DNA of 64,000 bases. Source: a virus. The position numbers and the translations under genes are program-made. Location: positions 46,938 to 110,937 of the IMG/VR virus record IMGVR_UViG_3300007512_000012; one strand, written 5' to 3'. How positions within the stretch are numbered: position 1 is the stretch's first letter; each line of letters opens with the position of its first letter. Positions 9,170 to 45,295 of this stretch are shown here, piece after piece. The notes beneath the pieces are model-generated. The model did not search any database. It saw nothing but the letters and a program-made list of their open reading frames with translations, and was not told the DNA's origin.

Positions 9170-9192
9170 TGTGAAGTTCCTCCGGGTTCAGC

Positions 9193-21552: not shown

Positions 21553-22425
21553 CTAGCGGGTGACGGTCAGGCGGGCGAGGCCGCGCGGGTTGTAGGCCCC
21601 GAGGCCCAGGTTCTCGAAGATCGAGAAGCCGATCATCCGGCGCTTCGGGTCGTCGGCCGACAGGACCGTCAGCTCGGTGCGGACCGGGATGCGGCCGAAC
21701 ATCTCCGGCTCGCAGCACAGGTACACCGTGCCGTTGGGCACGAGGCGGCTGGTGACGACGTTGGCCCCGTAGATGACCCCCTGGAGGCCCGTCTTCAGGA
21801 GCGTCGCCTGCGACTCGATGTCGAGGATGTCGCGGCCGAACTTGCGGATGTCCGCGTAGTCCCGCGCGTTCATGTAGATGCGGGCGACCCGGAGGTCGTG
21901 CCGCTCGATGAGCGCGAAGGCGTCCGCCAGCACCGCGCCCGAGATCGGGGCGATGACGGGGATGTCGGCGTTGAGCTGACCCGGCAGGGAGTCGAAGCCC
22001 GCCGTGGCGACGGCGTCGAGGACGGCGAAGACGCGCTCGTCCTCGGCGGCCTGGATCTGCGCCCGGCCGAGGTCCTGGGACCGCTCGATCAGGTCGAAGC
22101 GGCGCTCCTTGATCTGGGTGAGCGGGATCTCCGGGTTCGACGCGATCTCGAAGAGCGGGAAGATCACCCGGCGCGGCTTGGTGACCGCGAGGATGTTCTG
22201 GCCCTCTTCGCCGACCACGTAGGCGGTGATGTCGGGGTCCTTGTCGTAGATGGGCAGCGCACCGTCGGGGAGCTGCTCGACCAGGAAGGTCTTGCGGCCC
22301 ACGGCGGCGTAGTCCCGCCGCGTGCGGAGGGGCTGCGTCATCGACGCGGCGAGCTTGGCGCGACCCTGCGGGGTCTTGATGTACTCGCCGATGATCTTCT
22401 GCTTGACGGCGTTGGTGGCGTTCAT
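21553..22425 (-). CDS. Major capsid protein (HK97 fold)
   Basis: Follows protease, scaffold and decoration genes; strong RBS and codon bias; GRAKLAASMTQPLR..DY..VGRK.FLVEQLPDGALPIY, IQAAED, GxIYGANVVTSRLVP, final NPRG. Confidence 0.88.
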   Translation of the reverse strand: MNATNAVKQKIIGEYIKTPQGRAKLAASMTQPLRTRRDYAAVGRKTFLVEQLPDGALPIYDKDPDITAYVVGEEGQNILAVTKPRRVIFPLFEIASNPEIPLTQIKERRFDLIERSQDLGRAQIQAAEDERVFAVLDAVATAGFDSLPGQLNADIPVIAPISGAVLADAFALIERHDLRVARIYMNARDYADIRKFGRDILDIESQATLLKTGLQGVIYGANVVTSRLVPNGTVYLCCEPEMFGRIPVRTELTVLSADDPKRRMIGFSIFENLGLGAYNPRGLARLTVTR

Positions 22426-24869: not shown

Positions 24870-26332
24870 CGCTTCGTCTCCTTGCCTGTGGCGACTGCCA
24901 GGGATGGGTTCCTGCTCCCGTTGCGATCCTGGCCTCGCCGCGAGATGAGCTTGCCGAGCTTGATCAAGGTCTGTGCCTCGGCGGTTGTGGGCTTGCGGCC
25001 GAGCGCCGCTCGACAAGCCCGGAGGAATTGACTCGACGAGCTGTACTCGCCGATGTCGCCGAGCTGCGCAGCAGCCCGGTACACAGGCACGGGGATCTCC
25101 ACCCCGTACTCCGCGTGCAGTAGGGCCACCTTGTCCATCAGGTCGGTGTCGCTCGAAGCGTGCCGACAGAGGAAAGCCACAGTGGCGTCGTACACCGCCG
25201 CCTGCTTGACCACGTTGTCGTTGGGAGCCGCCGAAGACTCCTCGGGACCGAGGGCCTCGTCGAGGTCCTTCTGGTCCATGTCCTTCTTGAGCTTCTTCTT
25301 GACCCGATCCCGCATGTGATCGGTCAGCTCACGTTCCATGTCGTCGAACGGGCCGCCCTCGTCCTTCTTCTCGGCCGGGGCGTCCACGTCGTCGTCTTCG
25401 TCGCCCCACCCGGCCATGAAGTGGTCGCCGCCGAAGGCGAGGGCAGCGGCCTTGCGGCGGGTGCCCTTCGTCCACTCCTCCGGGGGAGTCGCGAGGATGG
25501 CCGAGGCGGCCTTGCCGAGCTTGTCGCCCTGGTGGATGGCGAGCACGTTGCGGAGGACCGCGCCCGTGAAGGCGGGGGTGCCGACCCAGGACGCCTCGAT
25601 GAAGTGGACGCCGCCGGTCGGGTCGAGGCTCGGGTGACCGCACAGCTCCGCGACGCGGTGCTGACGCCCCTGCTCGTCGAAGAAGACGTTCCCCTTCTCG
25701 TACTTGATGTGGGGGCACATCTCCGTCTCGTCGGCGGCCCAGTGCCCGCACTTCGTGCAGATGGTGCCATCGACGGTGCAGCCCATCGACAGGGTGCCCA
25801 TCTTGCCGGACTCGATGGCCTCGACCAGGTCCGCGTGCTTGCGGTCCGTGGCGATGAGGATGTCCACGTAGACCGAGTCGCCGATGTCGCGAGCGACCGC
25901 GTCGATGACCCGGCCCTTCGACAGCTCCTCGACCTGGACGTGCTCGACGAAGTTCTGCGCCCCGATGAAGGTCCGGTAGCTCTTGAGCAGAACGTCCCGG
26001 TCCCAGGCGTCGAGGTTGTTGTTGATGAACTTGTCGCAGCCGAGCTTGACCCGGAACTTGCCGTACTTCCGGTTGATCCTGAAGCCGCCCTCGGAGTGCT
26101 TGCCGAGCTTCGTGTTCGGCGGCTCGAAGGTGTCCACCGACGCCACGATGGTCGCGTGGGTCAGCAGGTAGTCGCTCGGGTTGAAGGGCTTGCCGAAGAT
26201 CTCCGACGCGCGGTCGATGAGGTTCTCCGACACCTCCGCAGCGGCCTTGGCGGCCGTGCGAACCTTCGCCCAGCCCGCACGTCCGACGTGCGGGGTGACG
26301 ACCTCAGCCCTGGCGTACTTCAGGAAGGCCAT
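24866..26332 (-). CDS. Prohead (maturation) protease with Cys-rich insertion
   Basis: NNNLDAW, TFIGAQNFVEH (His), KGRVIDA, LSMGC (Ser), CTKCGH...CPH, FIEASWVGTPA; fits HK97/assemblin-type protease motifs. Confidence 0.82.
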   Translation of the reverse strand: MAFLKYARAEVVTPHVGRAGWAKVRTAAKAAAEVSENLIDRASEIFGKPFNPSDYLLTHATIVASVDTFEPPNTKLGKHSEGGFRINRKYGKFRVKLGCDKFINNNLDAWDRDVLLKSYRTFIGAQNFVEHVQVEELSKGRVIDAVARDIGDSVYVDILIATDRKHADLVEAIESGKMGTLSMGCTVDGTICTKCGHWAADETEMCPHIKYEKGNVFFDEQGRQHRVAELCGHPSLDPTGGVHFIEASWVGTPAFTGAVLRNVLAIHQGDKLGKAASAILATPPEEWTKGTRRKAAALAFGGDHFMAGWGDEDDDVDAPAEKKDEGGPFDDMERELTDHMRDRVKKKLKKDMDQKDLDEALGPEESSAAPNDNVVKQAAVYDATVAFLCRHASSDTDLMDKVALLHAEYGVEIPVPVYRAAAQLGDIGEYSSSSQFLRACRAALGRKPTTAEAQTLIKLGKLISRRGQDRNGSRNPSLAVATGKETKR

Positions 26333-27234
26333 CAGGCAGCCTCCACCGGGTTGCCGTCGAGGTCGCAGGCCAGGACTCGGTCGCTGCCGTCACCGTCGAA
26401 GCCGAAGCTCTTGCGGTACTCGGAGTCGTCCGGGTCCACCACGATCTCGAAGCTGTGCCCGACACCACCGATCTTGCCGATGTACGCGAGCATCCGGGCC
26501 ATCGACTCGGCCCCGTCGCCGTTGCCGCTGAACTTCACCGTGAGGGTGCGCTCGTCGGCTGCCGACTTCACCTGCTGGACCAGGTCGAACCCCTGGTCCA
26601 TCGTGCCGTCCCACTCCGCCTGCAAGTCGTTCTGCTGGCCGTCGTCGTTGGGCTCGTAGGCCGGGTCGCCGATGATCTGGTCCCGCTTGATGAGGAACAT
26701 GCAGTGCGGGCACCCGAGCAGGCGGTGGCTCTGGCCGTCCACCCGCTTGTAGTTCGCCGGGCGGAGGTGGATGGGGTTGCCCTCGTCGTCGGCCTTGCAC
26801 TTCGGGCAGGCGTACTTCCCGCCGTCCAGTTCGGCCTTCGTGCCCCGGTAGTGGCGGTCCTTGCTGGCCCAGTAGAGGGCCGACTTGATCCAGGCGTGGC
26901 TGATCCGGTCGATGGACAGGCGGGCAGCCGACTTCGCCACAGGCCCACCAGGCACGCTCACGGTCCCCGCCCCGCCGGGAACCGTGCTGTGCTCTGGATC
27001 GGGCGTCTTCGTGATGATGTCGGTCACCCTCTGCACGTCTTCGACCGGGTAGCGGCCGGAACCCCACGGGAAGTCGATGTCCACCTGGCCGATGCCAGGC
27101 CACACCGCAGTCACCGTCCCCGCCTGCGACTCGTCCGTCGCTCCACCCGCAAGCGGGTACGCCAGGTCACCAACAGCGAACTCGGAGGCCCGCTGCTGGT
27201 AATCGACGAAGACGGTGGCGTGGCGATTCCCCAC
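26332..27234 (-). CDS. Modular hypothetical head-region protein with a zinc ribbon
   Basis: CPKC...CPHC; segments separated by three KSA motifs. Confidence 0.7.
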   Translation of the reverse strand: MGNRHATVFVDYQQRASEFAVGDLAYPLAGGATDESQAGTVTAVWPGIGQVDIDFPWGSGRYPVEDVQRVTDIITKTPDPEHSTVPGGAGTVSVPGGPVAKSAARLSIDRISHAWIKSALYWASKDRHYRGTKAELDGGKYACPKCKADDEGNPIHLRPANYKRVDGQSHRLLGCPHCMFLIKRDQIIGDPAYEPNDDGQQNDLQAEWDGTMDQGFDLVQQVKSAADERTLTVKFSGNGDGAESMARMLAYIGKIGGVGHSFEIVVDPDDSEYRKSFGFDGDGSDRVLACDLDGNPVEAA

Positions 27235-27260: not shown

Positions 27261-27995
27261 TCAGGCCGCCTTCGCGATCCCCGCGACGATGTCGGCCATC
27301 TTGGCGAGCTTGTCGGCGGCGGCCGGGGGCACGTCGCCCGCGAGGTGCGGCATGACGTGCGCGGCGGCCCGCGTCAGCGTGGCGAGGCGCTCGGCGTCCT
27401 CGGAGCCCTCCAGCAGCCGGGTCTGGAACTGGAGCACGTCGAGTCCGGCGGCGGCCAGCCGCTCGCCGAGGGTCTTGACGGCCTCGTGATCGCTGGCGGC
27501 GCAGCGGGTCGCGGCACCGTTGATGTCCATGTAGAGCGCGGCGAGCTTCTTGCCGTTCTCCAGGGCCGCCTGCACGCCGGGCCGGGCCGTCTGCCGGTCG
27601 GAGCCGCCGGGCAGCTCGCCGCCCTCCTGCTTCTCGCGCAGCTCGCGGTTCTCCTGCTGGCTGAAGTGGCCGCCCATGTAGGACTCGTCGGCCTCCTGCT
27701 CCTTCGGGCCGGACTTCTCCTCGCCGATCTGCTCGGGGTCCTCGCCGATGTGCTTGCCCTCGTCGAACACGTCGTCACCCGTGAGGGCGGTCTTGCGCTC
27801 GGTGGCGAGCTTCTCGATGTCGATCTCGGCCCGCTTGGCGATGTGGTCCGACAGGAGGTCGCACTGGAAGCCGAACTTCTGCGCGATCTCCGGCTTGATG
27901 CCGAAGGACTCGGCGTTCTTCTGGATGAGATCCGCTGCCTTGTCGAGGATGTTCCCCGCGTCGAGCGCGGCCTGCTTGCTGAGCTTCTGGGCCAT
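27261..27995 (-). CDS. Hypothetical head-region protein
   Basis: GGAGG RBS; KQA and KTA motifs; follows a late-promoter motif. Confidence 0.75.
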   Translation of the reverse strand: MAQKLSKQAALDAGNILDKAADLIQKNAESFGIKPEIAQKFGFQCDLLSDHIAKRAEIDIEKLATERKTALTGDDVFDEGKHIGEDPEQIGEEKSGPKEQEADESYMGGHFSQQENRELREKQEGGELPGGSDRQTARPGVQAALENGKKLAALYMDINGAATRCAASDHEAVKTLGERLAAAGLDVLQFQTRLLEGSEDAERLATLTRAAAHVMPHLAGDVPPAAADKLAKMADIVAGIAKAA

Positions 27996-28057
27996 GTCGG
28001 TGTTTCCTCCGTGTCCGAAACGGGGTGGACAGCACAGGGCGCACGGTCGGCCCTTCG

Positions 28058-28078
28058 CTATAACCCTCCCCGTATAGG
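28058..28078 (-). promoter_or_regulatory. Putative phage late promoter (CCTAT-N12-ATAG)
   Basis: Copy of the 8-copy motif. Confidence 0.7.
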
Positions 28079-28109
28079 AGAAAGATTGAAAAAACTCCCT
28101 GGGTGGTTC

Positions 28110-31100
28110 TCAGGCCACCAGGTCTTGCTCGTCCTCCGAAAGAACCGCTTTTTCCATCGCCGTGAACTCATCAGGCGACATCTGCTCGATTCTTTTTCGC
28201 TCGGCGGGGTCCTTCACATTTTCGAGAAAGTCCCGCTTCCGCTCCTCGGGCGACCGCTCCGGTCGCACTGAAGGGTCGTCCAGCAGCGAGAGGTCTGCCC
28301 CACCGGCCACGGCCCGCAGCACTGCAACCGCCGTGTCCTGCGCGTCGGGCTCCACGTCCATGTCGTCGATGGCGTCGGCCGTCGCCTCGGCCTGTGCCCG
28401 GACCACAGCTTCCCGCGACCGCTTCATGCACTCGGCCTGCGTCTTGCCCTCCTCCAGGCACGCCTGGAGGGCCTCATCGACCGCCGAATCCACGGCCTCG
28501 CGGGTCTTGTCCTCCACCTCGTCCGCCGTCTGGTCGAACAGCTCGGGGAGGTTGGCGGGGTCCCGCTTCTTCCTGGTGATGGCCGCCGCGACGCCCTGCA
28601 CGGTGGTCATGTGCATCACGCCCATGTCGCGGATCATGGCCCGCAGGTACTCCTGCACCTCGGGAGCCATGTCCGGGTTGTCGGCGAGCGCCTTGACCAG
28701 CGGCTCCCACGAGGTGCCCTCGGAGATCGCCGCCAGGCCCTCGTCGTCGAGCTTGCCCATCGCGTCGCGGACAGCCGCCCGGCCCTCCGCCGCGTAGACC
28801 TTCGACGAGTCCTTCAGGAACAACACCTCGGCGTTGCCCTGCTTGACCATCTGCTTGAGCACCAGCTTGAGCTTGCTGTTGAGCGGCTCCCGCACCAGGC
28901 GGCCGTCCGGGTGCTTCGCGTCGAAGTCCTCGTCGTTGAGCACCGCCGCCGCGTGGATGCCGTCGATGATCGCGTTCAGCTCGTCGTGCTCGGGGCTGCC
29001 CTTCTCGAAGTCACCGAGCTTCGCCGCCGCGTCCTCGGCCACCTGCCTTCGCTGGTCCGGGCTCACCCGCCGGTAGAGCTTCATCGCCTGCATCGCCCGT
29101 TCGGTCCGGGCGTCATCGTCGAGCTGCTCGGAGGAGAGGGGCTGGCCGCCGACGTTGGTGGGGTCGAGCAGCAGGGCCTCCTGGGCCTTCGCCTGGACCA
29201 CGGCCTCGGCCAGCTCGTCGATGTCGTCCCCGTCCACGCCCTTGAAGGGGTCCTTCGCGATGTCCTTCATCGCCGACACCGTCACGCCGAAGTCGTCGAA
29301 CAGCTCGCGGAGCTGCTTCATCTCCGCCTTGTACGCCGCATGGAACTCGGCCGAGTCGGCCTTCTCCATGAGCAGCAGAGCCGTCTCCTCCGTGATGACC
29401 TTGTCCCCGTAGAGCTTCTCGGCCAGGTCGGTGATCTCGGCCGTGAACTTCTCCTTGTCGGCCTTCGCCTGCTCCTTCTTCTTGGCCTCGTCCTCCTTGG
29501 CCTTCTCGGCCACGGCTTCCTCGGCCTCCTCCGGGGAGTCGGCGTCGCCCTTCGCGTAGGCCTCGGCCTTCGCCTTCGAGTCCTTGTCCTTGCCGAAGTC
29601 GTTGCGCACCTGGCCCTTCGCGTTCATCGCGTTCCAGGTGCCGTCGTCGGACGGCCACACGTCGCCGGGCTTGCGCTTCTGGCTCGGCTCGCCCTCGGCC
29701 ATCAGCCAGCGGAGAGCGACGCGGTTGGCGGCCAGGGTCGCCCGCTTCTTGTAGTTGTTGCTCAGGTCCCGGTCGCCGTCCGCCCCGAAGCCCTCGATGT
29801 CCGGGTCGTCCTCCTTCATCCGGTTCCGGCGGAGATCGCGACGCGGGGGCTTCTTCGTGGGGTTGCGGCGGTTGAGGCGCTCGACCTCCTCCTCTTCCTT
29901 CTCGGCCTTCGACTTCGTGGCCCGCCGGGTCATCAGGGTGTGCCCCTGCTCCCGACCTGTCTCCACGAACCCTCGCTGCTTGAGCATCCGAACCGCGTGC
30001 GGGTTCACCGCATCGAGGCAGAACTGGATGTCGGGGAACGGCTCGACCAGGTCGTCGTACTGGCTGATGGCGATGTCCATCAGCTTCCCTCCGAGCCCCC
30101 TTCGCTGCCAGCCATCCGGGTCCACGACGATGTCGAAGGCGTAGCACTCCTGGTCACCCGAATCCGACGAGTCGAACAAGGCAGCCACGAGCTTGCCCCC
30201 GGCCTCGTACCCCGCCACGAAGTCCATGTGCGACAAGATGTTGATCCCGGCCTTCTGTGCCAGCTTCCACGGGTCGGAACCTCGCGGAGCCCGCCAGACC
30301 AGGCGGGGAGACGCCCCCTCGACGAACCACCTGGCGGCCAGGCGACGGGTGGCCTGCTTGTAGAGCTGCCGCTTGCCGATGAGCTGCCAGGACAGGCCGA
30401 TCTTCCCGTCCTCTGCGTTGCCGAGGTAGCCCGCCCCCTGAAGCTCGGTGACCACGTCGGGCATCACCGGGTAGCCCCGCCAGGTGAACGTGCCGTCGTC
30501 CGCCACCAGGATGTGCTCGGCACCCCCGGCGGCCCGGTCCATGTCGTTGATGAGCGCCCACTCGTAGGCGGTCAGGCTGGAGATCAGCCCCTCGAAGCCC
30601 ACCAGGCTGACCAGCGGGTCCGGGCTGGTGTAGCCCACCTCCTCCGGCCAGGCGTTGTAGATGGAGATGATGGCGACCTTGTCGGCCGCGAGGCGCATCG
30701 GGTGACGAAGACCGTAGACGCCGTGCGCCCGGTTCCGCCGCTTCTCCGACTGCATCGAGCCCTTCGCCATGCTGTACCACTGGCGGCCGGTCCGCCAGAC
30801 GTAGCCGATGAGCCCGCCGCCGAGGTCCTTCTCGGGGTCCTCGTTCACGCTGGTCATCTCGGACTCGCCCCACCCGAAGACCGCGACGATCTCGTCGGCT
30901 CGGCCGAGGATCTGCCGCAGGCCCCACGAGAGCCGCCCCTGCTTGTCGAGCTTCTCCTTGACCGTGCCGTCCCGCATGAAGGTGTCTTCGAGGCCCGGCA
31001 CGAGGTACTGGCTGCGGAGCGTGCTGGCCTCGTGCCCCACCTCCTTGGCCGCCTCATCGAGCGCCTGCTGGAACTCCTTCTTGAGCTTCTGCTCCCGCTC

Positions 31101-34100
31101 CTTCTTGTCGGTCGGGAGCTTGCCGCCCTTGCCCCGGATGGCCTTGAGCCGGGTCTGGACTTCGCGGTTGGCGTGCAGCCCCCGGATGTCCTTCGCGGTG
31201 ATGCCGTGGGGCTTCAGGTAGGCGTTCACGTCGCCTGCCTCGACGCCCTCGAACACGGGGTCGGTGCCGGACTTGCCCTTCAGGGCCTCGCGGAGCCCGC
31301 TGACCAGGCCGGAGTCGCTGGTGGTCTTCGTCTGGCTCACCCCGGACTTGCCGACGTACTTGATGGTCGCCTTGCCGCCGGAGAGGGTGACGTGCTTCGC
31401 CTGCCAGCCGGTGACCCCGAAGTGGCCGTCCTTCGCCGAACCGGGGTTGCCGACCCGCTCGTAGGTGTCGTTCATCAGGCCCACGGCCAGGGCGCACAGC
31501 CGGGTCTTCTCGTCCTTCGACTTGAGGTCCTTGCCGATCTGGCCGCGCAGCTTGTCGAGGTTCTGCCGGAGCTTCTCGACCTTCTTCGCCTTCTCGCGGT
31601 TGCGGTGCTGGACCTGGCCCTCGCTGTACTCGTAGACCGTGACCTGCTCGCCCTTCTGGTTCTTGACCTTCTTCTTCGTGCCCTTGGCCGCCGTCTTCAG
31701 GCCGCCGGGCAGGGTCGGTGCCCGGAGCACGGCGATGACGTTGCCGGAGGAGGGGAAGTCGCGCGCGAGGCTCTTCCACACCCGCCCGGCAGCGGTGCTG
31801 GTGCCGGAGCCGCCGGAGCACTCGTAGGGCATGAACAGGAAGGGGCCGACCTTCTTGAACCACTCGACCATGACGGCCAGGTACATCGCCTTGCCGATGC
31901 CGAGGCCCTGCTTGCTCTCGTCGGTGATGAACGCCTTGTAGACCTGGAGGGCTCGGGTGTTCGTCCGCTCCTCCCCGTCGCTCGCCACCCACCGAGGTCG
32001 GCTGGTGTCCTCGACCTGCGGGTACTTCGCCAGCAGCTTCAGGACATCCCGCCCACACGTCTCCCGCTCGGGGTAGCGCATCACGCTGGCGTGGAGCCCG
32101 CCGATGGGGGCTCGGCCGTAGTAGACGCCTGCGAGGATGGCGTCGCTGTCGGACTTGACCCGGTACTTGACCTTGTTGCCCTCGTGCTCCATCAGCGGGG
32201 TGTTCGGGCCGAACCGCTGCGCGTACCGGGAGGCCACCCGGTCCACGAGCATCCTGTGGATCTCGACCTCGCCCGCTTCACCGCGAGGCAGGGCCGGGCG
32301 GCCCTGGCCGTAGAGCGGCATCGTGCTGTCCACCGGAGACGGCTGCGTCTCGGCCAGCAGGTGCAACGGAACGATCGTCTCCTCCTCCCCGGACGCCTGC
32401 ACGGCGTCGGCGAACTGCCTGTTGAACAGCAGGGCGAGGGAGTCGATGGGGACGCTCTTCGTGATGTCGTCGGCACCGACTTCGAGGACGACGCGGTGCA
32501 TGGTCGCCTGGTTGTAGCGGTCGCACAGCCGCCGGATGGCCGCGTTGGCCTCCTTCGACTGCCCCACAGCGTCCACAGCCTCGTTGAGCGAGTCCTGCAC
32601 CATCTGCGCGAGGGCGTCCTCGGTCAGCTCGCCGCCCACCTTGCTGACGCCGAACCGGGCTTCGAGCTTCTTGTCGAGCAGCTTGGTGGCCTCGGCGACC
32701 ACCTTCTTCGCGAAGATGTAGCCGGGCGGGGGCGGGATCGCGACGTACATGGCGGCGTTGATGCCGCCCTTCATCACCTCGCGGATGAGCAGCCGAGCGA
32801 TGCGGGCACGCTCCTTCGGGTCTGGCACGTCGCCCTTGAGGAGCTTCGCCACCCCGGAGGCCACGTCCTTGCCCCGCTCGACCTTCCGCTTGATGACCTT
32901 CTTCGCGATAGCCGCTGCACCGCTGACGGCCGACCGCAGCTTCCCGCGCTTCGGCTTGTCATCCTCGGCCTCGGGCGCGTCGTCGGTGACGGTGTGGTTC
33001 TTCGGGTCAGCTCCAGGGTGCTCCCGCAGGTACTCCTTGCGGGCCTCGTCCGTGCCGAACTCACGAGCGGACTTCTCCGCCTTGTCGCGGGCGGCCTGGT
33101 CCTTGTCGTAACGGACCTTGAAGAGCTTGACCTCCTTCTTGGCCCCCTGCCCGCCCTGGTCCTTCTTCGGACGCTTGCGAACGATGACCGTGGGGTCGCC
33201 CTTCTCGTTCTCGCCGAAACCCTCGATGCGGCCGGGGCTGTTGAGGTACTTGCCCGTGAACAGCGGGTCGCCGATCTCCAGCTCGAACTTCTTCGCCGTG
33301 CGGGACAGCGGGTACGTCTCGGGCTTCGCCATCCCCCACACCGCCAGGCCCTCGACCGTCCACGAACCCGTGGGCACCTGGCCCTCGTACTTCGAGTCGA
33401 GCCCGTCCAGGTAGGCGAGGGTGATGTGCGGGTTGTAGATGAGGAGCGAGCGGTCCTTCAGGGCGAACCCGGCATCGGTCAGCCGAACCCGGATGCCGTC
33501 TCGAAGCTGGTCCATGTACCCGTCGAACCGCACCGGGCAGTACGCCACTCGGCGTTCCTTCTCCGGGTGCTCGAAGTAGTCGAGGGGCTGGATGGTGGCC
33601 CGCATCGGCCGGTACTGGCTGGCCTCGGCCTGCACGGCTGCCAGGAACTCGGCCTCTCGCCCGCGCACGTCCCCCACGTAGAGCAGCGTGCAGTGGGGCG
33701 GGCTGTCGTCCTCGTCGCCGAGGCTCGGGAACTTCGCGGCCAACTCCTCCGGCAGCGGGAGCATCAGCCCCACCTTCGCCCCGGAGCCCTTCACGGCCGC
33801 CGTGCGAGCTGCCTTCCAGCCCTGGCTCCGCCGCTCGTCGGTCGGCAGGCCGACCTCCTGGCCGGAGTCGAAGCCGATGTAGGCCCACCCGTCGCCCGCC
33901 TCGATGCTCGTCACCTGGTCGCCCTCATCGGGGAACCAGGTCGGGGCCATCGCCGCCGTGCGGCCACCCTGAAGGTCGAGCCTGACGCGCTGCGTCAGCC
34001 GCCGCTTGTCGGTCACGAGGGACGGACTGTCGAGCAGGTGACGGCGAGCCAGGTCGGTGACCTGGCTGATCTGGCCGCCCCGGAGCCCGAACTCCTTGAT

Positions 34101-36527
34101 GAGCGACCGCATGTCCAGCACCTTGCCGGGCTGCTTGAGGGCCGCGATGAACTGGTCGGTGGCGTCAAACGACAGGTCCACCGCGATCTCCCGCAGGCGG
34201 GCGACCTGGTAGCGGTCGAGGAACCCGAGCCGCTTCCCGCTCGGGAGCCCCATGTCCATCATCGCGAACAGGGCATCCGAGCGCGTCTCATCGGCCACGT
34301 TGAACAGGGCGTTCGCCATCGCCCCGTTGCTCTGCGCGATGTCCTTGATCTCGTCGAGCAGCCCGAGCCGCTGCATCTCCTCCAGAGCCTTCTTCGCAGT
34401 GGGCTCCCGCAGGAGATCGACGAGCATGGTGCTCAGGTGGCCCGGCTTGATGTTCTTGAGCTTGCCCTTGTGCCGCCGGATGGCCGCCTCGGTGTCGGGC
34501 GTCAGCTTGAAGCCGTACTTCACGATGAACTTGATGGCCCGGACCATGCGGGTCGCGTCGTCGGTGAAGGTCTTGTCCGGGCTGGACGGGCACTTCATCG
34601 AGCCCGCCGCCAGGTCGGCGAGCCCGCACCCGGTCAGGTCGATGATCTCGGCCTTGTCCGGGCCGTTCGCCAGGTCTTGCAGCCGCCACATCAGCGTGTT
34701 GTGGACCACCACCCCGTTCGCCACGAAAGCAGGCTCGACCCCCTCGCCCATCGAGATGTCGAATACGTCCTGCTGCCCCGCATCCTCAACCGACGTGACC
34801 TCGACGTACTGGTAACCGAGGTCGAACAACCGCTGGAGCTTGGCAAACTCGTCCGGGCTGATGGCCTTGAGGCTCGCCAGGAACCCGTCGAAACCCCCTC
34901 GGGCATGAGCATCGTGGAGAAGCCGCTGAACCTTCCGAACAGGCTCATGGACATCGGGGAGGGTTCTGAACCCATCCCCGTCCGTGGCGTAGACGGCCCG
35001 GCTGGTGTCCTGCTTCCGCCCGGCAAGGAACCCCCGAATGTACTCTGCGGGGATGCCGTAGCGGTTGCGGGCTTTGTTGTCCCGCCGGGTGTAATCGAAC
35101 CCCTTGGTGACCATCCACGGTTGGATTTTCTCCCACAGGAGAGCCGAATCCACAGCGTTGATGTAGACGAACCTGCCCTTCACCTTGCTCAAAATGCCGT
35201 GAGCACCGAGAAGCACCTGCAACTGCTGGCGAACATGGGGGGACGCCGAGCAGTAGGTGATACGCCCCGTCTCGGGCCGGATCGAGCCGTCACCCTCCAG
35301 ATAGGCCGCAAGAAACGCCCACTGACTTCGCTCGTCAGCTTGCAGGATGGACCACGGGACGATCTTGTGGTGGGAGGCTGACTTGCCGTCCTTGGACCCC
35401 CCGCAGTACAGGCCGAGGTCTTCCAGCCATCCGACCACGGCCTTGCTGTCGGCGTAGATGTCGTAGCCGTCTGCGCTGGCGACAAACTCCACCCCACGCA
35501 AGATGCGGACGGACCCCTTCTCGACCACCTTGTTGCGGGAGGGCTGGAACCCGAAGGTGGCGTGGAAGCACTCGACGTAGTGGGAGATGAGGGCTGGATC
35601 AGAGTTGCTGAACGACACCCGCTTGTGGGTGTTCGACCCCTCGGCCACGATGCACCCGATCAGGAACGCCAGTTCGGGCGTCATCCTCTCAGGCTTGCGG
35701 ACATCCTTGAGTCGCCCACGCTTGGGCTGTACCGGATCGGGCAGGTCGAGAGCAAGGGGCGTCCGCCTCGCCACCTGCCGCACGGGCACACAGAGCAGGT
35801 CACCTTCCTCAAGCTGGTCCGCCTGAACCCACTCGTGGTCGTGGCCCCGAAGGACCAGAACCGGATGGTGGGGCGTGCAGGAGAAAGAATGACCCCACTC
35901 AGTCGTCACCCGCAGGGTGGGGGCGTAGCCGCTGTACTGCCACCCCACAGCAGTCGAAGGGCCGTCCTGCCCCGCCACGGTCAACCGGATGTCCTGATGA
36001 TCCCCCCCGTCACGAGAGGCGATCTGGTCGATGCGGAGGATGCCCTTCTCAGTAGGGATTAGGGTGTCCCCGGCCATGCAGTTGAAGGTGAACTCGCGGC
36101 GACGGGCGTCGTCCTCGATGGTCGCCTTCTCGACGTGCGTGGGCTTGTACCCGCCGTCCGTGTAGGACTCGATGCGGGCGTTGGCGATCTCGATGTCCTC
36201 GCCCTGGAGGTTCTCCTCCCCGAGCATCCAGTCGCCCACGATGTGCAGCAGGGCGACGCCGTAGTCGTTGGTCTGGATGCGGGTCTTCGCGGGGATGGCC
36301 TTGGCGACCTCCTTGGCGAACCAGTCGGAGTCCTTGCCGCGCAGGGCCACCGAGTCGATGACCACGTCGATGTCCTTGATCGGGCGGCGGATGACGAAGT
36401 TGCGGACGGCCCCGCCCACGACGTAGACGTGCCTGCCGACCCCCAGGCGCTTCGCCAGGTCCGACAAGAACTTCATCAGCGCCAGGGACGCCGAGCTGCT
36501 CATCGCGATGTGGGTCGGCACTGCCAC
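28110..36527 (-). CDS. 2805-aa multi-enzyme polyprotein: CCA-type nucleotidyltransferase with intein, 2H phosphoesterase, GNAT, topoisomerase IB, GNAT and unknown domains
   Basis: VGGAVRN/KDIDV/RRREFTFN/DDATRMVRAIKF; HCTL and HITL; KQGLGIG; ERVGN/GKSG/KDIR/VGH/RSQY; QRRGLGG. Confidence 0.88.
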   Translation of the reverse strand: MAVPTHIAMSSSASLALMKFLSDLAKRLGVGRHVYVVGGAVRNFVIRRPIKDIDVVIDSVALRGKDSDWFAKEVAKAIPAKTRIQTNDYGVALLHIVGDWMLGEENLQGEDIEIANARIESYTDGGYKPTHVEKATIEDDARRREFTFNCMAGDTLIPTEKGILRIDQIASRDGGDHQDIRLTVAGQDGPSTAVGWQYSGYAPTLRVTTEWGHSFSCTPHHPVLVLRGHDHEWVQADQLEEGDLLCVPVRQVARRTPLALDLPDPVQPKRGRLKDVRKPERMTPELAFLIGCIVAEGSNTHKRVSFSNSDPALISHYVECFHATFGFQPSRNKVVEKGSVRILRGVEFVASADGYDIYADSKAVVGWLEDLGLYCGGSKDGKSASHHKIVPWSILQADERSQWAFLAAYLEGDGSIRPETGRITYCSASPHVRQQLQVLLGAHGILSKVKGRFVYINAVDSALLWEKIQPWMVTKGFDYTRRDNKARNRYGIPAEYIRGFLAGRKQDTSRAVYATDGDGFRTLPDVHEPVRKVQRLLHDAHARGGFDGFLASLKAISPDEFAKLQRLFDLGYQYVEVTSVEDAGQQDVFDISMGEGVEPAFVANGVVVHNTLMWRLQDLANGPDKAEIIDLTGCGLADLAAGSMKCPSSPDKTFTDDATRMVRAIKFIVKYGFKLTPDTEAAIRRHKGKLKNIKPGHLSTMLVDLLREPTAKKALEEMQRLGLLDEIKDIAQSNGAMANALFNVADETRSDALFAMMDMGLPSGKRLGFLDRYQVARLREIAVDLSFDATDQFIAALKQPGKVLDMRSLIKEFGLRGGQISQVTDLARRHLLDSPSLVTDKRRLTQRVRLDLQGGRTAAMAPTWFPDEGDQVTSIEAGDGWAYIGFDSGQEVGLPTDERRSQGWKAARTAAVKGSGAKVGLMLPLPEELAAKFPSLGDEDDSPPHCTLLYVGDVRGREAEFLAAVQAEASQYRPMRATIQPLDYFEHPEKERRVAYCPVRFDGYMDQLRDGIRVRLTDAGFALKDRSLLIYNPHITLAYLDGLDSKYEGQVPTGSWTVEGLAVWGMAKPETYPLSRTAKKFELEIGDPLFTGKYLNSPGRIEGFGENEKGDPTVIVRKRPKKDQGGQGAKKEVKLFKVRYDKDQAARDKAEKSAREFGTDEARKEYLREHPGADPKNHTVTDDAPEAEDDKPKRGKLRSAVSGAAAIAKKVIKRKVERGKDVASGVAKLLKGDVPDPKERARIARLLIREVMKGGINAAMYVAIPPPPGYIFAKKVVAEATKLLDKKLEARFGVSKVGGELTEDALAQMVQDSLNEAVDAVGQSKEANAAIRRLCDRYNQATMHRVVLEVGADDITKSVPIDSLALLFNRQFADAVQASGEEETIVPLHLLAETQPSPVDSTMPLYGQGRPALPRGEAGEVEIHRMLVDRVASRYAQRFGPNTPLMEHEGNKVKYRVKSDSDAILAGVYYGRAPIGGLHASVMRYPERETCGRDVLKLLAKYPQVEDTSRPRWVASDGEERTNTRALQVYKAFITDESKQGLGIGKAMYLAVMVEWFKKVGPFLFMPYECSGGSGTSTAAGRVWKSLARDFPSSGNVIAVLRAPTLPGGLKTAAKGTKKKVKNQKGEQVTVYEYSEGQVQHRNREKAKKVEKLRQNLDKLRGQIGKDLKSKDEKTRLCALAVGLMNDTYERVGNPGSAKDGHFGVTGWQAKHVTLSGGKATIKYVGKSGVSQTKTTSDSGLVSGLREALKGKSGTDPVFEGVEAGDVNAYLKPHGITAKDIRGLHANREVQTRLKAIRGKGGKLPTDKKEREQKLKKEFQQALDEAAKEVGHEASTLRSQYLVPGLEDTFMRDGTVKEKLDKQGRLSWGLRQILGRADEIVAVFGWGESEMTSVNEDPEKDLGGGLIGYVWRTGRQWYSMAKGSMQSEKRRNRAHGVYGLRHPMRLAADKVAIISIYNAWPEEVGYTSPDPLVSLVGFEGLISSLTAYEWALINDMDRAAGGAEHILVADDGTFTWRGYPVMPDVVTELQGAGYLGNAEDGKIGLSWQLIGKRQLYKQATRRLAARWFVEGASPRLVWRAPRGSDPWKLAQKAGINILSHMDFVAGYEAGGKLVAALFDSSDSGDQECYAFDIVVDPDGWQRRGLGGKLMDIAISQYDDLVEPFPDIQFCLDAVNPHAVRMLKQRGFVETGREQGHTLMTRRATKSKAEKEEEEVERLNRRNPTKKPPRRDLRRNRMKEDDPDIEGFGADGDRDLSNNYKKRATLAANRVALRWLMAEGEPSQKRKPGDVWPSDDGTWNAMNAKGQVRNDFGKDKDSKAKAEAYAKGDADSPEEAEEAVAEKAKEDEAKKKEQAKADKEKFTAEITDLAEKLYGDKVITEETALLLMEKADSAEFHAAYKAEMKQLRELFDDFGVTVSAMKDIAKDPFKGVDGDDIDELAEAVVQAKAQEALLLDPTNVGGQPLSSEQLDDDARTERAMQAMKLYRRVSPDQRRQVAEDAAAKLGDFEKGSPEHDELNAIIDGIHAAAVLNDEDFDAKHPDGRLVREPLNSKLKLVLKQMVKQGNAEVLFLKDSSKVYAAEGRAAVRDAMGKLDDEGLAAISEGTSWEPLVKALADNPDMAPEVQEYLRAMIRDMGVMHMTTVQGVAAAITRKKRDPANLPELFDQTADEVEDKTREAVDSAVDEALQACLEEGKTQAECMKRSREAVVRAQAEATADAIDDMDVEPDAQDTAVAVLRAVAGGADLSLLDDPSVRPERSPEERKRDFLENVKDPAERKRIEQMSPDEFTAMEKAVLSEDEQDLVA
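34698..36080 (-). mobile_element. Intein (461 aa) with LAGLIDADG homing endonuclease
   Basis: Starts CMAGDT, block B TPHHPV, LIGCIVAEGS and LAAYLEGDGS, ends FVANGVVVHN followed by Thr; more A/T at third codon positions than the flanks. Confidence 0.93.
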
Positions 36528-36581: not shown

Positions 36582-38297
36582 CTACCCGAACCGGCCGCCG
36601 CCCTCTTCCTGTGGCTTCTCGTACTTCAGCCCGAGGTACTCGGCGATCTTCTCGGCGAAGTCGCTGTTCTCCGCCAGGGCGTCGCCGACCCGCGAGTAGA
36701 GGCCACGGAACAGCTCGTTGAACGTCGCGTCCTGCACGGTGCCCACGTCCTGCATGAGCTTCTCGCGCACCGTCACCGGGTCGAGGTTCAGGTGTTCGAG
36801 GATCGTGTCGATGTCCAGCGAGCCCTTCTGGTAGAGGTTCATCAGGGCGTCGAACGTCTCGGTGTTGTCGCGGAACGACAGCCGGGTGAACGACAAGCGG
36901 GGGACGATGACCTGGAGGTTGCCGTCCTCGTCTTCCTCGACGAACCCCATGCGGGCGCACATCGGCCGGAAGAACTGCTCCTCCACCAACCCCTGCAACG
37001 TCTCCCGGTTGAGCATGAACCGCTGGTTGATGACCTCCAGGTTGATGCGGTCACCGGAGTAGCTGGACTCGCCGGAGAGCAGGCTCTCGGTGACCCCGAG
37101 GCCCGCGTACATCTGGCGGTCGGTGAAGTCGAAGACCCACGACCAGTCGGGGAGCCGCTGGTCCGCCCCCATCTCCTCCCACGTCACCTGGAAGTTGGTG
37201 ATGATGGAGAAGTCGGGGTCCTGAAGGGCCAGGTCCACCTGCTCGCGGAGGTCCTCGGTCTGCTCCGCGTTCATGTCCTCGGCGTAGATGAGCCGGTAGG
37301 GCGTCATGTGCCGCGAGGCGATGGACGTGAGGCTCTGGCGGACCTTGTCGCGGAAGACGAGCGTCCGCAGGCAGCGGAGCAGGATGCTCTTGCCACGGGG
37401 CTCATACTGCGACTTCTTGCGGGCCATCAGGTAGTAGAACGACCCCGCCTCCGGGTCCGTGTTCAGCGGGATGTTCTGCCCCTCGGCGATGGCCGCCACC
37501 ACGTCCTCGGGCATCGAGTTCACGACGCGGGCCGCGTGGGGGTCCCCGGAGGCTGCTCGGTTGATGACCGCCTTCGTCTTCGAGTCGGGGATCAGCTCGA
37601 TGAGCTTCTCGTCCGTGAAGGGGAAGCTCTCGACGTGGATCTGCTCGGGGGGCAGGCAGCGGATGGCCGTCCAGCCCTTGTAGTTCTTCTTGAGCCAGGC
37701 CGCCATGCGCTCGTTGGCGTCCTCGTGCCGGACCTTGCGCTCGACGATCTCACCGTCCTTGGTGATCTCGCGGACGATCTCGAACTCGATGTCCTCCGGC
37801 ATGTCCGGCGAGGTGTCCTCGCAGAAGATGTGGGCCTCGCCGAGCAGGTTCCACTCGTGGTTGATCTCCATCAGCCGGTGAAGGAGCCCCTGCCGCTTCG
37901 CCCAGTTCTCGCAGAAGCGAAGCGACGCAGAGGCGAGCTTCTCGTTGCGGGCCTTCGGCTTGCGGAGGCGGACCTTCGAGAGCGGCAGCTCGTCGAGCAG
38001 GTCGATGGCCTGGCCGACGAAGGGGTCGTGGTCGTAGAAGAAGCGGTAGAAGTTGCGCTTCTCGTCGTCGCTCTGCGGCAGTTCGAGGAAGTCGGTGGAC
38101 AGCTCGGGCGAGTAGAAGTTGCCGCCCGCCCCCATCATGGAGCCGCCCGCAGCACCGCCGTAGCCGCCGCCGACACCGCACGCGGCGGCCTTCATCGACG
38201 ACGTGACGATCTTCGTGGGCTTGCCCACCGTCACACCCTTCCGGTCTGCCACCTTGCGGACGACCGTCGTGTCGTCGGGGTCGTTCGACCTAGCCAT
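36582..38297 (-). CDS. Portal protein
   Basis: Downstream of terminase; RFFY..DPFVGQAIDL...P, EWNLLGEAH, RGKSILLRCL, GLGVTESLLSGE; size fits. Confidence 0.82.
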   Translation of the reverse strand: MARSNDPDDTTVVRKVADRKGVTVGKPTKIVTSSMKAAACGVGGGYGGAAGGSMMGAGGNFYSPELSTDFLELPQSDDEKRNFYRFFYDHDPFVGQAIDLLDELPLSKVRLRKPKARNEKLASASLRFCENWAKRQGLLHRLMEINHEWNLLGEAHIFCEDTSPDMPEDIEFEIVREITKDGEIVERKVRHEDANERMAAWLKKNYKGWTAIRCLPPEQIHVESFPFTDEKLIELIPDSKTKAVINRAASGDPHAARVVNSMPEDVVAAIAEGQNIPLNTDPEAGSFYYLMARKKSQYEPRGKSILLRCLRTLVFRDKVRQSLTSIASRHMTPYRLIYAEDMNAEQTEDLREQVDLALQDPDFSIITNFQVTWEEMGADQRLPDWSWVFDFTDRQMYAGLGVTESLLSGESSYSGDRINLEVINQRFMLNRETLQGLVEEQFFRPMCARMGFVEEDEDGNLQVIVPRLSFTRLSFRDNTETFDALMNLYQKGSLDIDTILEHLNLDPVTVREKLMQDVGTVQDATFNELFRGLYSRVGDALAENSDFAEKIAEYLGLKYEKPQEEGGGRFG

Positions 38298-39096: not shown

Positions 39097-41151
39097 TCAC
39101 CTCCCTCCCCGGCCGCGTGAGCGACCCCGGATCAGGGACCGCTGGCGGTCGGGGCTCGAACCACCGAGCCGAGAGCGGGCCATCGCCTTGCGCCGGGCCT
39201 TCGCCAGCTCGGTCGGCGACGCCTGGCCCTTGTGGCGGCCCTTCTTGCGCGAGGTGCCCGCGATGTACTTCCGCTTGCCCATGTGCTGGGTGGCCTCCCA
39301 CACCATGCGGACCAGGGCGTCGGAGTAGTCGTCGTACTTGTCGGGCTGGTTGGGGGCCTCGACCGTCACGATGTACTTGCTGTGCGTCTCCGCCTGAAGC
39401 TCCAGCAGCTCCTCGATGTAGTCGGCGTGGGCGTTCGGGTTCTCCGGGTTGGGCTGGTCGAACAGCACCAGCTTTTGCTCGAACATCAGGGTCTTGAAGT
39501 TGGCGAAGATCTGGCTGGTGAGCTGCTTCGTGAAGAAGACCGACTCGCACTGCGTCAGGCCGCGCTTGTGCAAGGCCGTCTCGAAGGGGATGCCCGCCCA
39601 CTGGTCGAACATGCCCTTCTCGATGTAGAAGCGGCGGCTCAGGGCGTACAGCCAGGCGGTGATGTCGTCGAAGGACAGCCGCTCCAGGTCTTCGTAGTCG
39701 CCCTCACCTGCCCGGATGCGCTCGATGTAGTCGAGGACGATCCGGTGCTCCTCGTCGATGTGGCCGATGGCGACCGCGCAGTAGTCGCCGTCCACCAGGC
39801 CCGCCGAGATGTCGATGCCCATGAAGTGCGGGGCACGCAGCGGGGCCTTCTGCGCGGGCCGGAGCATCGGGTCCACGCAACGCAGCAGCGGCCCCGGCTT
39901 CAGCCAGCCCTTCGTCCGGTCCGTGAACTCGGCCCCGAACTCCGTGAAGAAGCTGTCCGGGTCGGTGGCGTACTCCTCCGCGAGGAACGTCGCCTCGACC
40001 GTGGGGTTCACCTCCCACGTCGGGGCCTGGATGCAGAGCATGTTCCGCGACTCCAGGCCGCCGGAGTAGCCCTGCCTGAACTTGCGGAAGAAGAAGCCCT
40101 GCTTCCCGAGGGGGGACGAGATCGAGAGGATGCGCCCCTCGACCTTGCCGATGGCCCGCCGCCGGTTGCGGGGGTCCTTCGGCGAGAAGGCCGCCAGCGA
40201 CGGCTTGACGGCCCGGTAGATCGTGAGCGCGTCGCTCTGGCCCACGTCGTTGAAGTGAGCCAGCTCGTCGAGGATGATGACGATGTTGCCTGCACCGCGC
40301 AGGCCCTTCGCCACGCACGACTTGAAGCTGACCTTGATGGTCGCCTTGGCCGTGGGGTCGTCCACGTACCGGCCGAACCGGCTGATGTCCTCCGGCGACT
40401 GGAACTTCGCGTAGGACATCGTGTTGTTGGCGGTGTAGGGCTTGTAGAAGGCGCAGTTCGAGAAGTGGCCGCTGGCCTCGTTGTAGAGCAGACCCGCCTG
40501 GTCCTTGTCCGTCGCCACGCTGATGAGCTGGATGACGTTGGTCTTCGGGATGCCGTAGTACCGCTGCGGGTTGTCCTTGAGGATGAGCTTGTAGACCTCG
40601 TAGGCCATCACGCAGGCGCAGATGAAGGTCTTGCCGGAACGACGGCCGATGGAGAGCACCAGCTCGCGGCGCTCCCGGCCAGGCACCACCTCCTTGATGT
40701 TGCTGCGGCCCTCGGCGTACAGGAACCGGAGGTACTCGGCCTCCGTCATGTAGCGGGGGTTCTCCCGCCGCCAGTCGGTGATCTTGACCCGGAACTTGTA
40801 GAAGCCGGTCTCGTCCTCCATCGCGTCCGGGTAGTCGAGCGGCTCCTCCGGCTCGACTTCATCGGGCAGGAGATCGATCAGCTCGCCGGGCTCGTCCTCA
40901 TCCTCGTCGTCCGGCAGGAACGCGATCTCGTCGTAGTTCGGGTGGTCGGACGGGACCTTCTTCGTGAGGTCCAGGCCCCACGGGTTGTCGTCGAGGGGGA
41001 TGCCGTAGTGGGCCTTCAGGATGACCCGCTGCACGGGATACAAGGGGATGTTGAGTCCCCAGGACGACTCCACGAACTCGATGATGTTCGCTGGCTGCTG
41101 CCCTGTTCGCTCTTGCTTTCCCGCTGCGAGGGCGATGTCCGCCAAGCTCAT
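39097..41151 (-). CDS. terL: Terminase large subunit
   Basis: PVQ adenine motif, GRRSGKT Walker A, IILDE Walker B, ISSP, RNase H MGID...FDQW...DDYSDA. Confidence 0.93.
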   Translation of the reverse strand: MSLADIALAAGKQERTGQQPANIIEFVESSWGLNIPLYPVQRVILKAHYGIPLDDNPWGLDLTKKVPSDHPNYDEIAFLPDDEDEDEPGELIDLLPDEVEPEEPLDYPDAMEDETGFYKFRVKITDWRRENPRYMTEAEYLRFLYAEGRSNIKEVVPGRERRELVLSIGRRSGKTFICACVMAYEVYKLILKDNPQRYYGIPKTNVIQLISVATDKDQAGLLYNEASGHFSNCAFYKPYTANNTMSYAKFQSPEDISRFGRYVDDPTAKATIKVSFKSCVAKGLRGAGNIVIILDELAHFNDVGQSDALTIYRAVKPSLAAFSPKDPRNRRRAIGKVEGRILSISSPLGKQGFFFRKFRQGYSGGLESRNMLCIQAPTWEVNPTVEATFLAEEYATDPDSFFTEFGAEFTDRTKGWLKPGPLLRCVDPMLRPAQKAPLRAPHFMGIDISAGLVDGDYCAVAIGHIDEEHRIVLDYIERIRAGEGDYEDLERLSFDDITAWLYALSRRFYIEKGMFDQWAGIPFETALHKRGLTQCESVFFTKQLTSQIFANFKTLMFEQKLVLFDQPNPENPNAHADYIEELLELQAETHSKYIVTVEAPNQPDKYDDYSDALVRMVWEATQHMGKRKYIAGTSRKKGRHKGQASPTELAKARRKAMARSRLGGSSPDRQRSLIRGRSRGRGGR

Positions 41152-45239: not shown

Positions 45240-45259
45240 GAGCGGCTCACCTCCGGCTT

Positions 45260-45280
45260 CTACAGGACTCGGGATATAGG
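45260..45280 (-). promoter_or_regulatory. Putative phage late promoter (CCTAT-N12-GTAG)
   Basis: Copy of the 8-copy motif. Confidence 0.7.
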
Positions 45281-45295
45281 CTGGATACCAGCGGC

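Follow-up and report, generated by a model that had tools for sequence, protein, structure and literature searches.

A giant multi-enzyme protein encoded between portal and prohead protease carries a conserved basic-x-Ala word at its module joints and may be a head-cargo polyprotein

The window analysed here comprises 64,000 nucleotides of the IMG/VR virus record IMGVR_UViG_3300007512_000012 (positions 46,938 to 110,937) and represents the terminal 64 kb of one 110,937-bp phage-like contig with 68% G+C. On its minus strand, between the genes for the portal and the prohead protease, lies a giant open reading frame (ORF). A preliminary description, made from the sequence alone, viewed this ORF as a polyprotein of enzyme cargo that is packaged into the prohead, cut at [KR]-x-[AG] motifs by the neighbouring protease and ejected with the DNA. 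Our analysis partly supports this interpretation, by exchangeable modules in the portal-to-protease slot, by a conserved word at their joints, by the occurrence of the same word in other proteins of the head region, and by the predicted fold of the protease. The single open frame of 2805 amino acids (aa) was confirmed; it starts with GTG, has AGGAG 7 nt upstream, and alignments of its relatives begin at aa 8-9. The promoter-like word CCTATG/CCTATA upstream of the ORF is also found upstream of many other genes, and a promoter role of this sequence is plausible.

The order of genes on the minus strand is large terminase, portal, polyprotein, orf244, orf300, protease, scaffold, a 229-aa protein and major capsid protein (MCP):

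39097..41151, minus strand: large terminase (TerL), from head-gene order
36582..38297, minus strand: portal of the Mu type (phrog_16240, E 4e-30); N-terminal leader variable, K-A-A site ahead of the conserved core
28110..36527, minus strand: polyprotein ORF, 2805 aa, between portal and orf244
27261..27995, minus strand: orf244, conserved helical head-region protein, in relatives fused in frame to the cargo ORF
26332..27234, minus strand: orf300, conserved head-region protein with [KR]-x-A-T at aa 4-7, in relatives fused to large ORFs
24866..26332, minus strand: prohead (head maturation) protease (phrog_18299, E 3e-13)
23352..24869, minus strand: acidic scaffold-like protein with EF-hand, GSDKEA (four copies), LG[KR]xAS and KVASS
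21553..22425, minus strand: MCP (phrog_2522, E 4e-48)

The closest record is the uncultured phage LR745208.1 (485 kb; portal 66% and MCP 84% identical), followed by Tunturiibacter phage Tunturi_5 and Bacillus phage G. Considering these nearest records, the contig is probably part of a large or huge phage genome. Most likely, the polyprotein comes from a clade of large, uncultured phages that has LR745208.1 as a relative and Tunturi_5 and phage G as more distant ones. The latter two were rejected as direct models for the polyprotein, since the genes in their post-portal slot are unrelated or short. In LR745208.1 (locus L001) the same slot holds a minimal homologue of 508 aa (8202-9728, minus strand) that consists of a HAD-like phosphatase, topoisomerase IB (Topo IB) and the element L1 described below; this locus also has a duplicated orf244 and an inserted GIY-YIG-like gene.

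Domains were called from Pfam matches above Pfam's own cut-offs unless stated otherwise. By direct reading, the catalytic motifs named in the preliminary description were all present. The class II CCA-adding enzyme is represented by a PolyA_pol head domain (PF01743, aa 34-154, 49.6 bits) and by PolyA_pol_RNAbd (PF12627, aa 672-727, 27.4 bits); a PDB sequence search matched CCA enzymes (E about 1e-8 to 3e-9), and the motifs GGAVRN, DID and RREFTFN can be read directly. The 2H phosphoesterase corresponds to 2_5_RNA_ligase2 (PF13563, aa 941-1064, 42.8 bits). For the Topo IB core, Topoisom_I (PF01028) matched aa 1640-1836 with 85.5 bits and topoisomerase I was found in the PDB with E 1e-9; the motif string ERVGN-GKSG-KDIRG-VGHE-RSQY was read, and the pentad R1691, K1727, R1782, H1832 and Y1841 is present in this order, as judged by motif resemblance and not by structural alignment. 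Two GNAT domains had been proposed. The second one (aa 2060-2203) was confirmed by PF00583 with 22.6 bits versus a cut-off of 20.7 when scanned alone. The first one (aa 1414-1613) has a QGLGIGK motif and a language-model lead, its neighbours in the ESM Atlas being viral GNAT clusters (score 0.95), but no Pfam match was obtained at E<=5; by this lead we refer to it as GNAT-like.

About 40% of the polyprotein has no family match in Pfam. Megablast of the ORF versus phage records gave no match, and tblastn returned pieces of the intein (see below) and of Topo IB only. No Pfam match was found in the polyprotein, at E up to 1-5, for MuF, MPTase, DarA/B, N4 vRNAP, relaxase or a C-terminal assemblin-like peptidase, and neither Pfam nor PHROG gave a match to Phage_Mu_F. 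The suggested analogy to MuF-type proteins is reduced to the position of the gene: no MuF or metallopeptidase domain is detectable by Pfam, and the C-terminal domain is without a fold match.

A search of 5.8 billion proteins yielded 38 giant proteins (1.6-3.1 kaa) with CCA and Topo IB modules, and 79 related IMG/VR head loci were fetched by a portal query; searches for related loci that used the C-terminal part alone or modules E-G alone returned no relatives. By comparison with the relatives, the polyprotein consists of about 12 modules. Their borders were derived from BLAST without regard to the motif, and resulted in 14 clusters of borders of high-scoring segment pairs (HSPs). The resulting map, all on the minus strand, is as follows:

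36081..36527, minus strand: CCA-adding enzyme, N-extein, aa 1-149 (GGAVRN, DID, RREFTFN; PF01743, PDB)
34698..36080, minus strand: intein with LAGLIDADG endonuclease, 461 aa, C150...HN610, +1 residue Thr611 (PF14890 47 bits, PF14528 47 bits)
33963..34697, minus strand: CCA-adding enzyme, C-extein, aa 611-855 (DDATRMVRAIKF, RNA-binding part; PF12627, PDB)
33954..33962, minus strand: joint RTA(A), aa 856-858; 33 HSP borders cluster at aa 859
33807..33953, minus strand: module B, 49 aa between two RTAA words; elsewhere in relative P0017 only, there bounded by LRLAA and KAAS
33798..33806, minus strand: joint RTA(A), aa 908-910 (HSP borders, context in relatives)
33303..33797, minus strand: 2H phosphoesterase (HCTL aa 945, HITL aa 1034; PF13563); precedes the CCA module in many relatives
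33294..33302, minus strand: joint RTA-KKF, aa 1076-1081, full six-residue word; 39 HSP borders
33075..33293, minus strand: module D, about 75 aa (FELxxGDP...), widespread, without assigned function; 55 matches in relatives, at varying positions
33066..33074, minus strand: joint KSA, aa 1152-1154; 24 HSP borders, mode exactly at aa 1154
32289..33065, minus strand: modules E and F, aa 1155-1413 (KEA aa 1325, RLCDRY aa 1333); no Pfam match, few relatives
31698..32288, minus strand: module G, GNAT-like, aa 1414-1610 (RVASRY aa 1430, QGLGIGK aa 1540); language-model lead, no Pfam match
31689..31697, minus strand: joint KTA(A), aa 1611-1613; 31 HSP borders
30945..31688, minus strand: Topo IB catalytic domain (PF01028, PDB, pentad)
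30936..30944, minus strand: joint KQG, aa 1862-1864; 32 HSP borders, mode exactly at aa 1864
30360..30935, minus strand: modules I and J, split by RLA at aa 1945-1947; no family match; order J-I in P0010, P0014 and P0022
29928..30359, minus strand: KQA joint aa 2057, RLAARW aa 2062, GNAT domain (RRGLGGK aa 2142; PF00583)
29919..29927, minus strand: joint RRA-TK, aa 2201-2205; 14 HSP borders
29739..29918, minus strand: L1, charged 60-aa element of low model confidence with PxxKPPRxDL; commonest module
28113..29738, minus strand: L2, conserved helical C-terminal domain (AlphaFold2 model), preceded by KRA aa 2261 and RVALRW aa 2269

The preliminary description had placed the module borders on 12 copies of the motif, all of which are in frame and read as given there. 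Ten of the 12 sites match the independent BLAST borders, while KEA at aa 1325 is weak and KVG at aa 1296 is unsupported. In 8 of the 14 border clusters a motif is at most 3 residues away (background 0.15, binomial p 3.5e-4), and for all eight clusters with a support of at least 13 (aa 859, 905, 1074, 1154, 1612, 1864, 1947 and 2200) the distance is at most 4 residues. In an all-versus-all BLAST, 99 motifs began exactly at an HSP start and 81 began two residues before one (expected: 19), and 120 HSPs ended on the motif (expected: 20), meaning that similarity among relatives begins or ends on the motif 4-6 times more often than expected; as HSP borders among related sequences are not independent, these enrichment figures overstate the significance. 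The pattern is uniform across proteins that are 25-85% identical. Placement of joints outside folded cores was checked on the structural model for aa 2201-2283 and on the Pfam extents for the 2H, Topo IB and GNAT domains.

Comparison with the relatives reveals what is kept at the joints. The word is retained whatever module comes next: the CCA module of relatives ends with GG[KR]-[TVSQ]-A irrespective of the following module, the topoisomerase module begins with [KR]-[VT]-A-A-[KR]-[YF], and at the RRA-TK joint [KR]-x-A-T-K follows differing upstream modules. In fused relatives with an internal CCA module, the word stands immediately before the position that the start Met occupies when this module is N-terminal. 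The logo of the junctions has K/R at position 0, T/V/Q at +1, A (78%) or G (22%) at +2, followed by A/K/S/T, K/R and F/Y; no Glu word, as the P1-Glu rule of T4 and phiKZ would require, was seen at the joints in this logo. The three-residue motif as originally written is too loose, but a longer word, [KR]-[TVQ]-A-x-[KR]-[FYW], with A/S/T/K as the usual fourth residue, holds at the joints. This six-residue word occurs 85 times in the family versus 7.1 expected and 9 times in the genome versus 1.7 expected, and R[VLI][ACVS]x[RK][YFW] is found 68 times in the family versus 2.6 expected. RTAA is present 11 times in the genome (1.5 expected); this excess is specific for R and T. Several of the copies are no more than 30 residues away from a protein end. 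Additional copies of the word within the polyprotein are RVASRY at aa 1430, RLAARW at aa 2062 and RVALRW at aa 2269. Of all genes of at least 300 aa, the polyprotein has the lowest [KR]xA content relative to expectation (30 versus 43, z -2.4), as would be expected if sites within folded cargo are selected against. The protein is modular in its anatomy, and the word at its joints is conserved in a position-specific manner.

Modules are swapped at orthologous loci, and their order and identity vary among the 38 giant proteins and the 79 loci. BLAST of the 38 relatives showed that the 2H module can stand on either side of the CCA module, that the order of I and J can be inverted, and that module D has several positions. 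Cargo swapped in by relatives includes ART-PolyVal, NUDIX, ChaC, RNA ligase and tRNA-ligase CPD domains; ART-PolyVal (PF18760, 34.4 bits) was found in relative P0005 only. In the 79 loci the slot between portal and protease is hypervariable: the same modules are encoded either in a single giant ORF or spread over two to four ORFs. Topo IB and L1 are the most constant parts of the slot, and are therefore taken as the core of the cargo. In at least 10 loci the cargo ORF runs in frame into an orf244-like or orf300-like domain, and these fusions read through the conserved promoter-like word (TTCAATCTT..CTATAC), a Shine-Dalgarno sequence and an ATG. Such a nested long/short design suggests that the orf244-like and orf300-like neighbours may carry the cargo into the prohead.

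In the window, the promoter-like word TTCAATCTT-N-CTATAC lies upstream of orf244 (27996-28109) and is kept across phages of 42-68% G+C. It is conserved in the same manner in loci L010, L017, L049, L050 and L062, and in several relatives it sits within an ORF that runs from the cargo gene into orf244.

The CCA-adding enzyme is interrupted directly after RREFTFN by the intein, which comprises Intein_splicing and LAGLIDADG_3 domains and was not mentioned in the preliminary description. Activity of the CCA-adding enzyme is predicted to hinge on intein splicing. Relatives without intein are contiguous across the insertion site, and relatives with intein also exist: in loci L008, L050 and L051 the intein is 75-92% identical, and the flanks are about 50-65% identical. 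Insertions between conserved halves were also seen in portal genes (about 520 aa, loci L067-L077) and in protease genes (about 390 aa, L007 and L056), and these are probably further inteins.

For the last 600 residues (L1/L2), AlphaFold2 gave a model with a mean predicted local distance difference test score (pLDDT) of 87.4 and a predicted template modelling score of 0.72. Residues 2204-2283 are of low confidence, while aa 2284-2800 adopt a helical fold in the model; RVALRW lies in a helix. No match to this fold was found at E<=0.001 (Foldseek best E 0.33 in PDB and 0.17 in BFVD; best Z 6.9 in VIA wide). L1 contains a near-invariant PxxKPPRxDL and in many relatives forms the extreme C-terminus of a post-portal protein of 195-300 aa. 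It is a candidate for a portal- or capsid-binding peptide; a complex prediction for portal and L1 scored 0.00, which speaks neither for nor against binding.

The protease was modelled by AlphaFold2 as a catalytic domain (aa 38-267), a disordered linker and a C-terminal helical domain. Alignment of the catalytic-domain model with T4 gp21 (5jbl_B) resulted in a Z score of 9.0 and a root-mean-square deviation of 3.1 A over 129 residues, and Z scores of 6-7.5 were obtained for herpesvirus proteases, although the Foldseek E-value was weak (0.015). The model therefore points to the fold of T4 gp21 and herpesvirus assemblin. Three sites are kept across the 19 orthologues of the protease: R-[TV]-A-[AS] (aa 25), K-x-A in the variable linker that follows the catalytic domain (near aa 285), and ND..[IV]K[QE][AG] before the C-terminal domain, which here reads VKQA near aa 375. 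All three sites are located in low-pLDDT segments (aa 1-36 and aa 265-375) flanking the folded parts, and [KR]xA is in excess in the protease (z 2.4). An invariant Cys/His cluster (C185, C192, C195, C206, C231 and H233; aa 185-233), which may be a zinc site, is inserted in the gp21/assemblin-type fold.

It had also been proposed that the motif recurs in the scaffold and in other head-region genes, and this holds true. The scaffold contains GSDKEA four times, KTA twice and KSA twice; it has 17 [KR]xA sites versus 6.1 expected (z 4.7), and LG[KR]xAS and KVASS are common to two scaffolds that are 35% identical. Orf244, orf300, the protease and the portal leader carry the motif as well, and orf244 has the highest [KR]xA excess in the genome. 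In the portal leaders the motif peaks 15 aa before the conserved core, in 40 of 53 leaders versus 46% of shuffles. One short motif is thus common to the protease, the scaffold, the portal and the putative internal proteins, at termini or in linkers.

Additional proteins in the window carry the motif or the word. Upstream of the terminase, a 763-aa protein rich in Ala and Lys (42409-44700, minus strand) contains three RTAA words and 41 [KR]xA sites, where 17.6 would be expected (z 6.8); PHROG gave no match for it, and it is a candidate for a further virion protein that undergoes processing. RVAxR[YW] is found near the C- or N-terminus of four unannotated proteins (13947-16838, 16841-17248, 44652-45374 and 48412-48723, all on the minus strand). 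PHROG scans of other proteins bearing RTAA or RVAxRY gave no annotation, and hence no virion assignment. The scaffold-like protein has an EF-hand calcium-binding loop at aa 271-290 of the listed ORF (PF00036, E 7e-9).

The locus resembles several known systems. Polyvalent proteins combine multiple effectors, are encoded beside packaging genes and have been suggested to reach the host cell (Iyer, Burroughs, Anand, de Souza, Aravind 2017, PMC5512222). The protein described here likewise joins at least two unrelated catalytic domains in one polypeptide (2 to 15 in polyvalent proteins), is encoded among packaging genes, in the same slot in 79 loci, and is extensively mosaic. Shared domains are 2H, GNAT and a Pol-beta-fold nucleotidyltransferase, and in the relatives ART-PolyVal, NUDIX and RNA ligase; delivery with the DNA is proposed for both. 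In contrast to polyvalent proteins, no MuF, MPTase, DarA/DarB or relaxase anchor is detectable by Pfam, and Topo IB and the CCA-adding enzyme form the core cargo; in the study on polyvalent proteins, topoisomerase comes up a single time and CCA-adding enzymes are absent. For processing, that study suggests metallopeptidases that are part of the proteins, and it describes C-terminal assemblin-like peptidases as rare (PMC5512222), whereas here the protease of predicted assemblin fold is encoded by its own gene, two genes downstream, and would act at a defined word. Processing by a separate protease at a basic-x-Ala word and the core of Topo IB and CCA-adding enzyme are what would be new in comparison with polyvalent proteins.

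Capsid proteases provide a second comparison. As in T4 (gp21, acting on the internal proteins and Alt) and in phiKZ-like phages (gp175; gp245 of SPN3US), the head module encodes a protease that is predicted to share their fold, one short motif recurs in scaffold, protease, portal and internal proteins, and sites lie near termini; in those systems they also lie in long propeptides that are cut several times, and cargo is thought to enter the host. SPN3US gp245 processes internal or ejected head proteins at A/S/G-x-E (PMC10052503). Unlike these systems, in which P1 is Glu ([LI]-x-E; A/S/G-x-E) and the substrates are single proteins with propeptides, the word here is basic-x-Ala and about 12 exchangeable modules are chained. 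Cleavage after Ala is known from herpesvirus assemblins (e.g. YLQA|T and VQA|S in PrV; PMC4498786). Like the pUL26/pUL26.5 system (PMC4498786), the phage protease and its putative sites show a related predicted fold (Z 6-7.5), Ala at the putative P1 and Ser/Thr/Ala at P1', and an arrangement of protease, linker with site and C-terminal scaffold-type domain; nested in-frame long and short products as for UL26/UL26.5 are seen in relatives of this phage. In contrast, P3 is basic here and hydrophobic in herpesviruses, and the substrates here would include enzyme cargo. The link to assemblin is evolutionarily distant and is based on a predicted model. With MuF/SPP1 gp7 the polyprotein shares a gene position directly after the portal and variable enzymatic cargo, but it has no sequence match and its conserved part is C-terminal (L1/L2, without fold match) instead of N-terminal. 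Neither a protein family of this CCA/Topo IB type nor a phage protease with a basic-x-Ala rule was found in the literature, which was covered incompletely.

The best explanation for these data, to which we assign a probability of roughly 55%, is a head-cargo polyprotein that is cut at its joints by the neighbouring prohead protease. The precursor would be made late, together with the head proteins, and would enter the prohead via its conserved C-terminal L1/L2 region or via the scaffold-like neighbours. The protease of predicted gp21/assemblin fold would then cut after the Ala of the joints, and would likewise cut itself, the scaffold and the portal leader. The freed enzymes would remain in the capsid and enter the host together with the DNA. 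That the protein is cut, at which bond, that it is packaged and ejected, and that it serves counter-defence or another biological role is inferred from the arrangement of genes, modules and words.

Besides the dependence among HSP borders, several findings weigh against this reading. The loose motif [KR]-x-[AG] is not enriched in the polyprotein (64 versus 77±7 in shuffled sequences) or across the family (2134 versus 2313±36, z -5), and with one such motif per 44 residues any border would have a site nearby. RQAA, KQAA and ERLA are also over-represented, and some sites in the head region could be sequence typical of helices. T4 gp21, the closest structural relative of the protease, cuts after Glu. 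In this window the polyprotein and orf244 are separate genes and not fused. Moreover, stand-alone module genes of relatives carry the word within the first 6-12 and the last 10-25 residues. Since the word is present at the ends of unfused genes, a pure separator role between fused domains is insufficient, and the joint word may be an address tag (like the capsid-targeting sequence of T4) or a docking helix as well.

These observations have to be weighed against other explanations. The ORF could encode a giant multi-enzyme protein that stays uncleaved, packaged or not, with the word serving as linker, short helix or docking tag. The words at both ends of unfused modules and near the termini of other proteins of the genome would fit this view, as would RVALRW within a helix of the L1/L2 model, and N4 vRNAP is packaged unprocessed (PMC5512222). 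We nevertheless consider it rather unlikely, because the core of the word is conserved in the disordered protease linkers, in the scaffold and in the portal leader, typical positions of self- and substrate cleavage, and because the motif is depleted in the cargo but over-represented in the scaffold; getting about 12 independent enzymes, uncut in one 300-kDa chain, into a capsid and out again would presumably also be hard. Less probable still is a late cytoplasmic factory for RNA repair and DNA topology, which is never encapsidated, lies in the head operon for co-regulation, and has joints that are cut by a host protease or not at all. In its favour, CCA-adding and RNA-repair enzymes are common non-virion genes of jumbo phages (PMC7824862), and the Pfam scans detected neither MuF nor any other known packaging domain. 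This explanation is at odds with the conservation of the portal-protease slot in 79 loci, with in-frame fusions of relatives to scaffold-like head-region proteins, with the word common to protease, scaffold and portal, and with the presence in one relative of ART-PolyVal (PF18760), a Pfam domain defined on polyvalent proteins.

Heavily shuffled module order and sharp borders would also be expected if the joints were recombination scars, where conserved linker-coding DNA promotes shuffling and has no role at the protein level. We regard this as very unlikely: the conserved unit is a degenerate peptide pattern (K/R; T/V/Q; A/G), which implies that the DNA is not conserved, the peptide word is kept across relatives that span 32 to 68% G+C, and it is also present in the protease, scaffold and portal, which are not shuffled.

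An extension of the cleaved-cargo reading, for a clade of huge phages, is put forward as a tentative and rather doubtful possibility. The portable six-residue word would be address label and cut site at the same time: any enzyme that it flanks, whether fused or encoded alone, would be taken up into the prohead and set free by the protease of predicted assemblin fold, which would cut after Ala in the manner of herpesvirus proteases. Cargo would then be a plug-and-play matter. The core of Topo IB and L1 would act on the packaged or ejected genome, with tRNA-repair and other modules as exchangeable anti-defence add-ons.

If the joints are protease sites, this would be a phage capsid protease whose rule is basic-x-Ala; among known rules, that of herpesvirus assemblin would be nearer than the Glu rule found in T4 and phiKZ, which would bear on the common ancestry of capsid maturation in tailed phages and herpesviruses. 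The claim can be tested with recombinant protein, and no phage culture is needed. The rule would allow mature virion proteins and cargo to be predicted in genomes of uncultured phages, and the word could be a handle for loading foreign proteins into capsids. Huge phages could then deliver, together with their DNA, a rapidly exchangeable enzyme kit for tRNA 3'-end repair, hydrolysis of 2',3'-cyclic or 2'-5' phosphodiesters, DNA relaxation and acetylation, to which the relatives would add ADP-ribosylation, NUDIX and RNA ligase activities.

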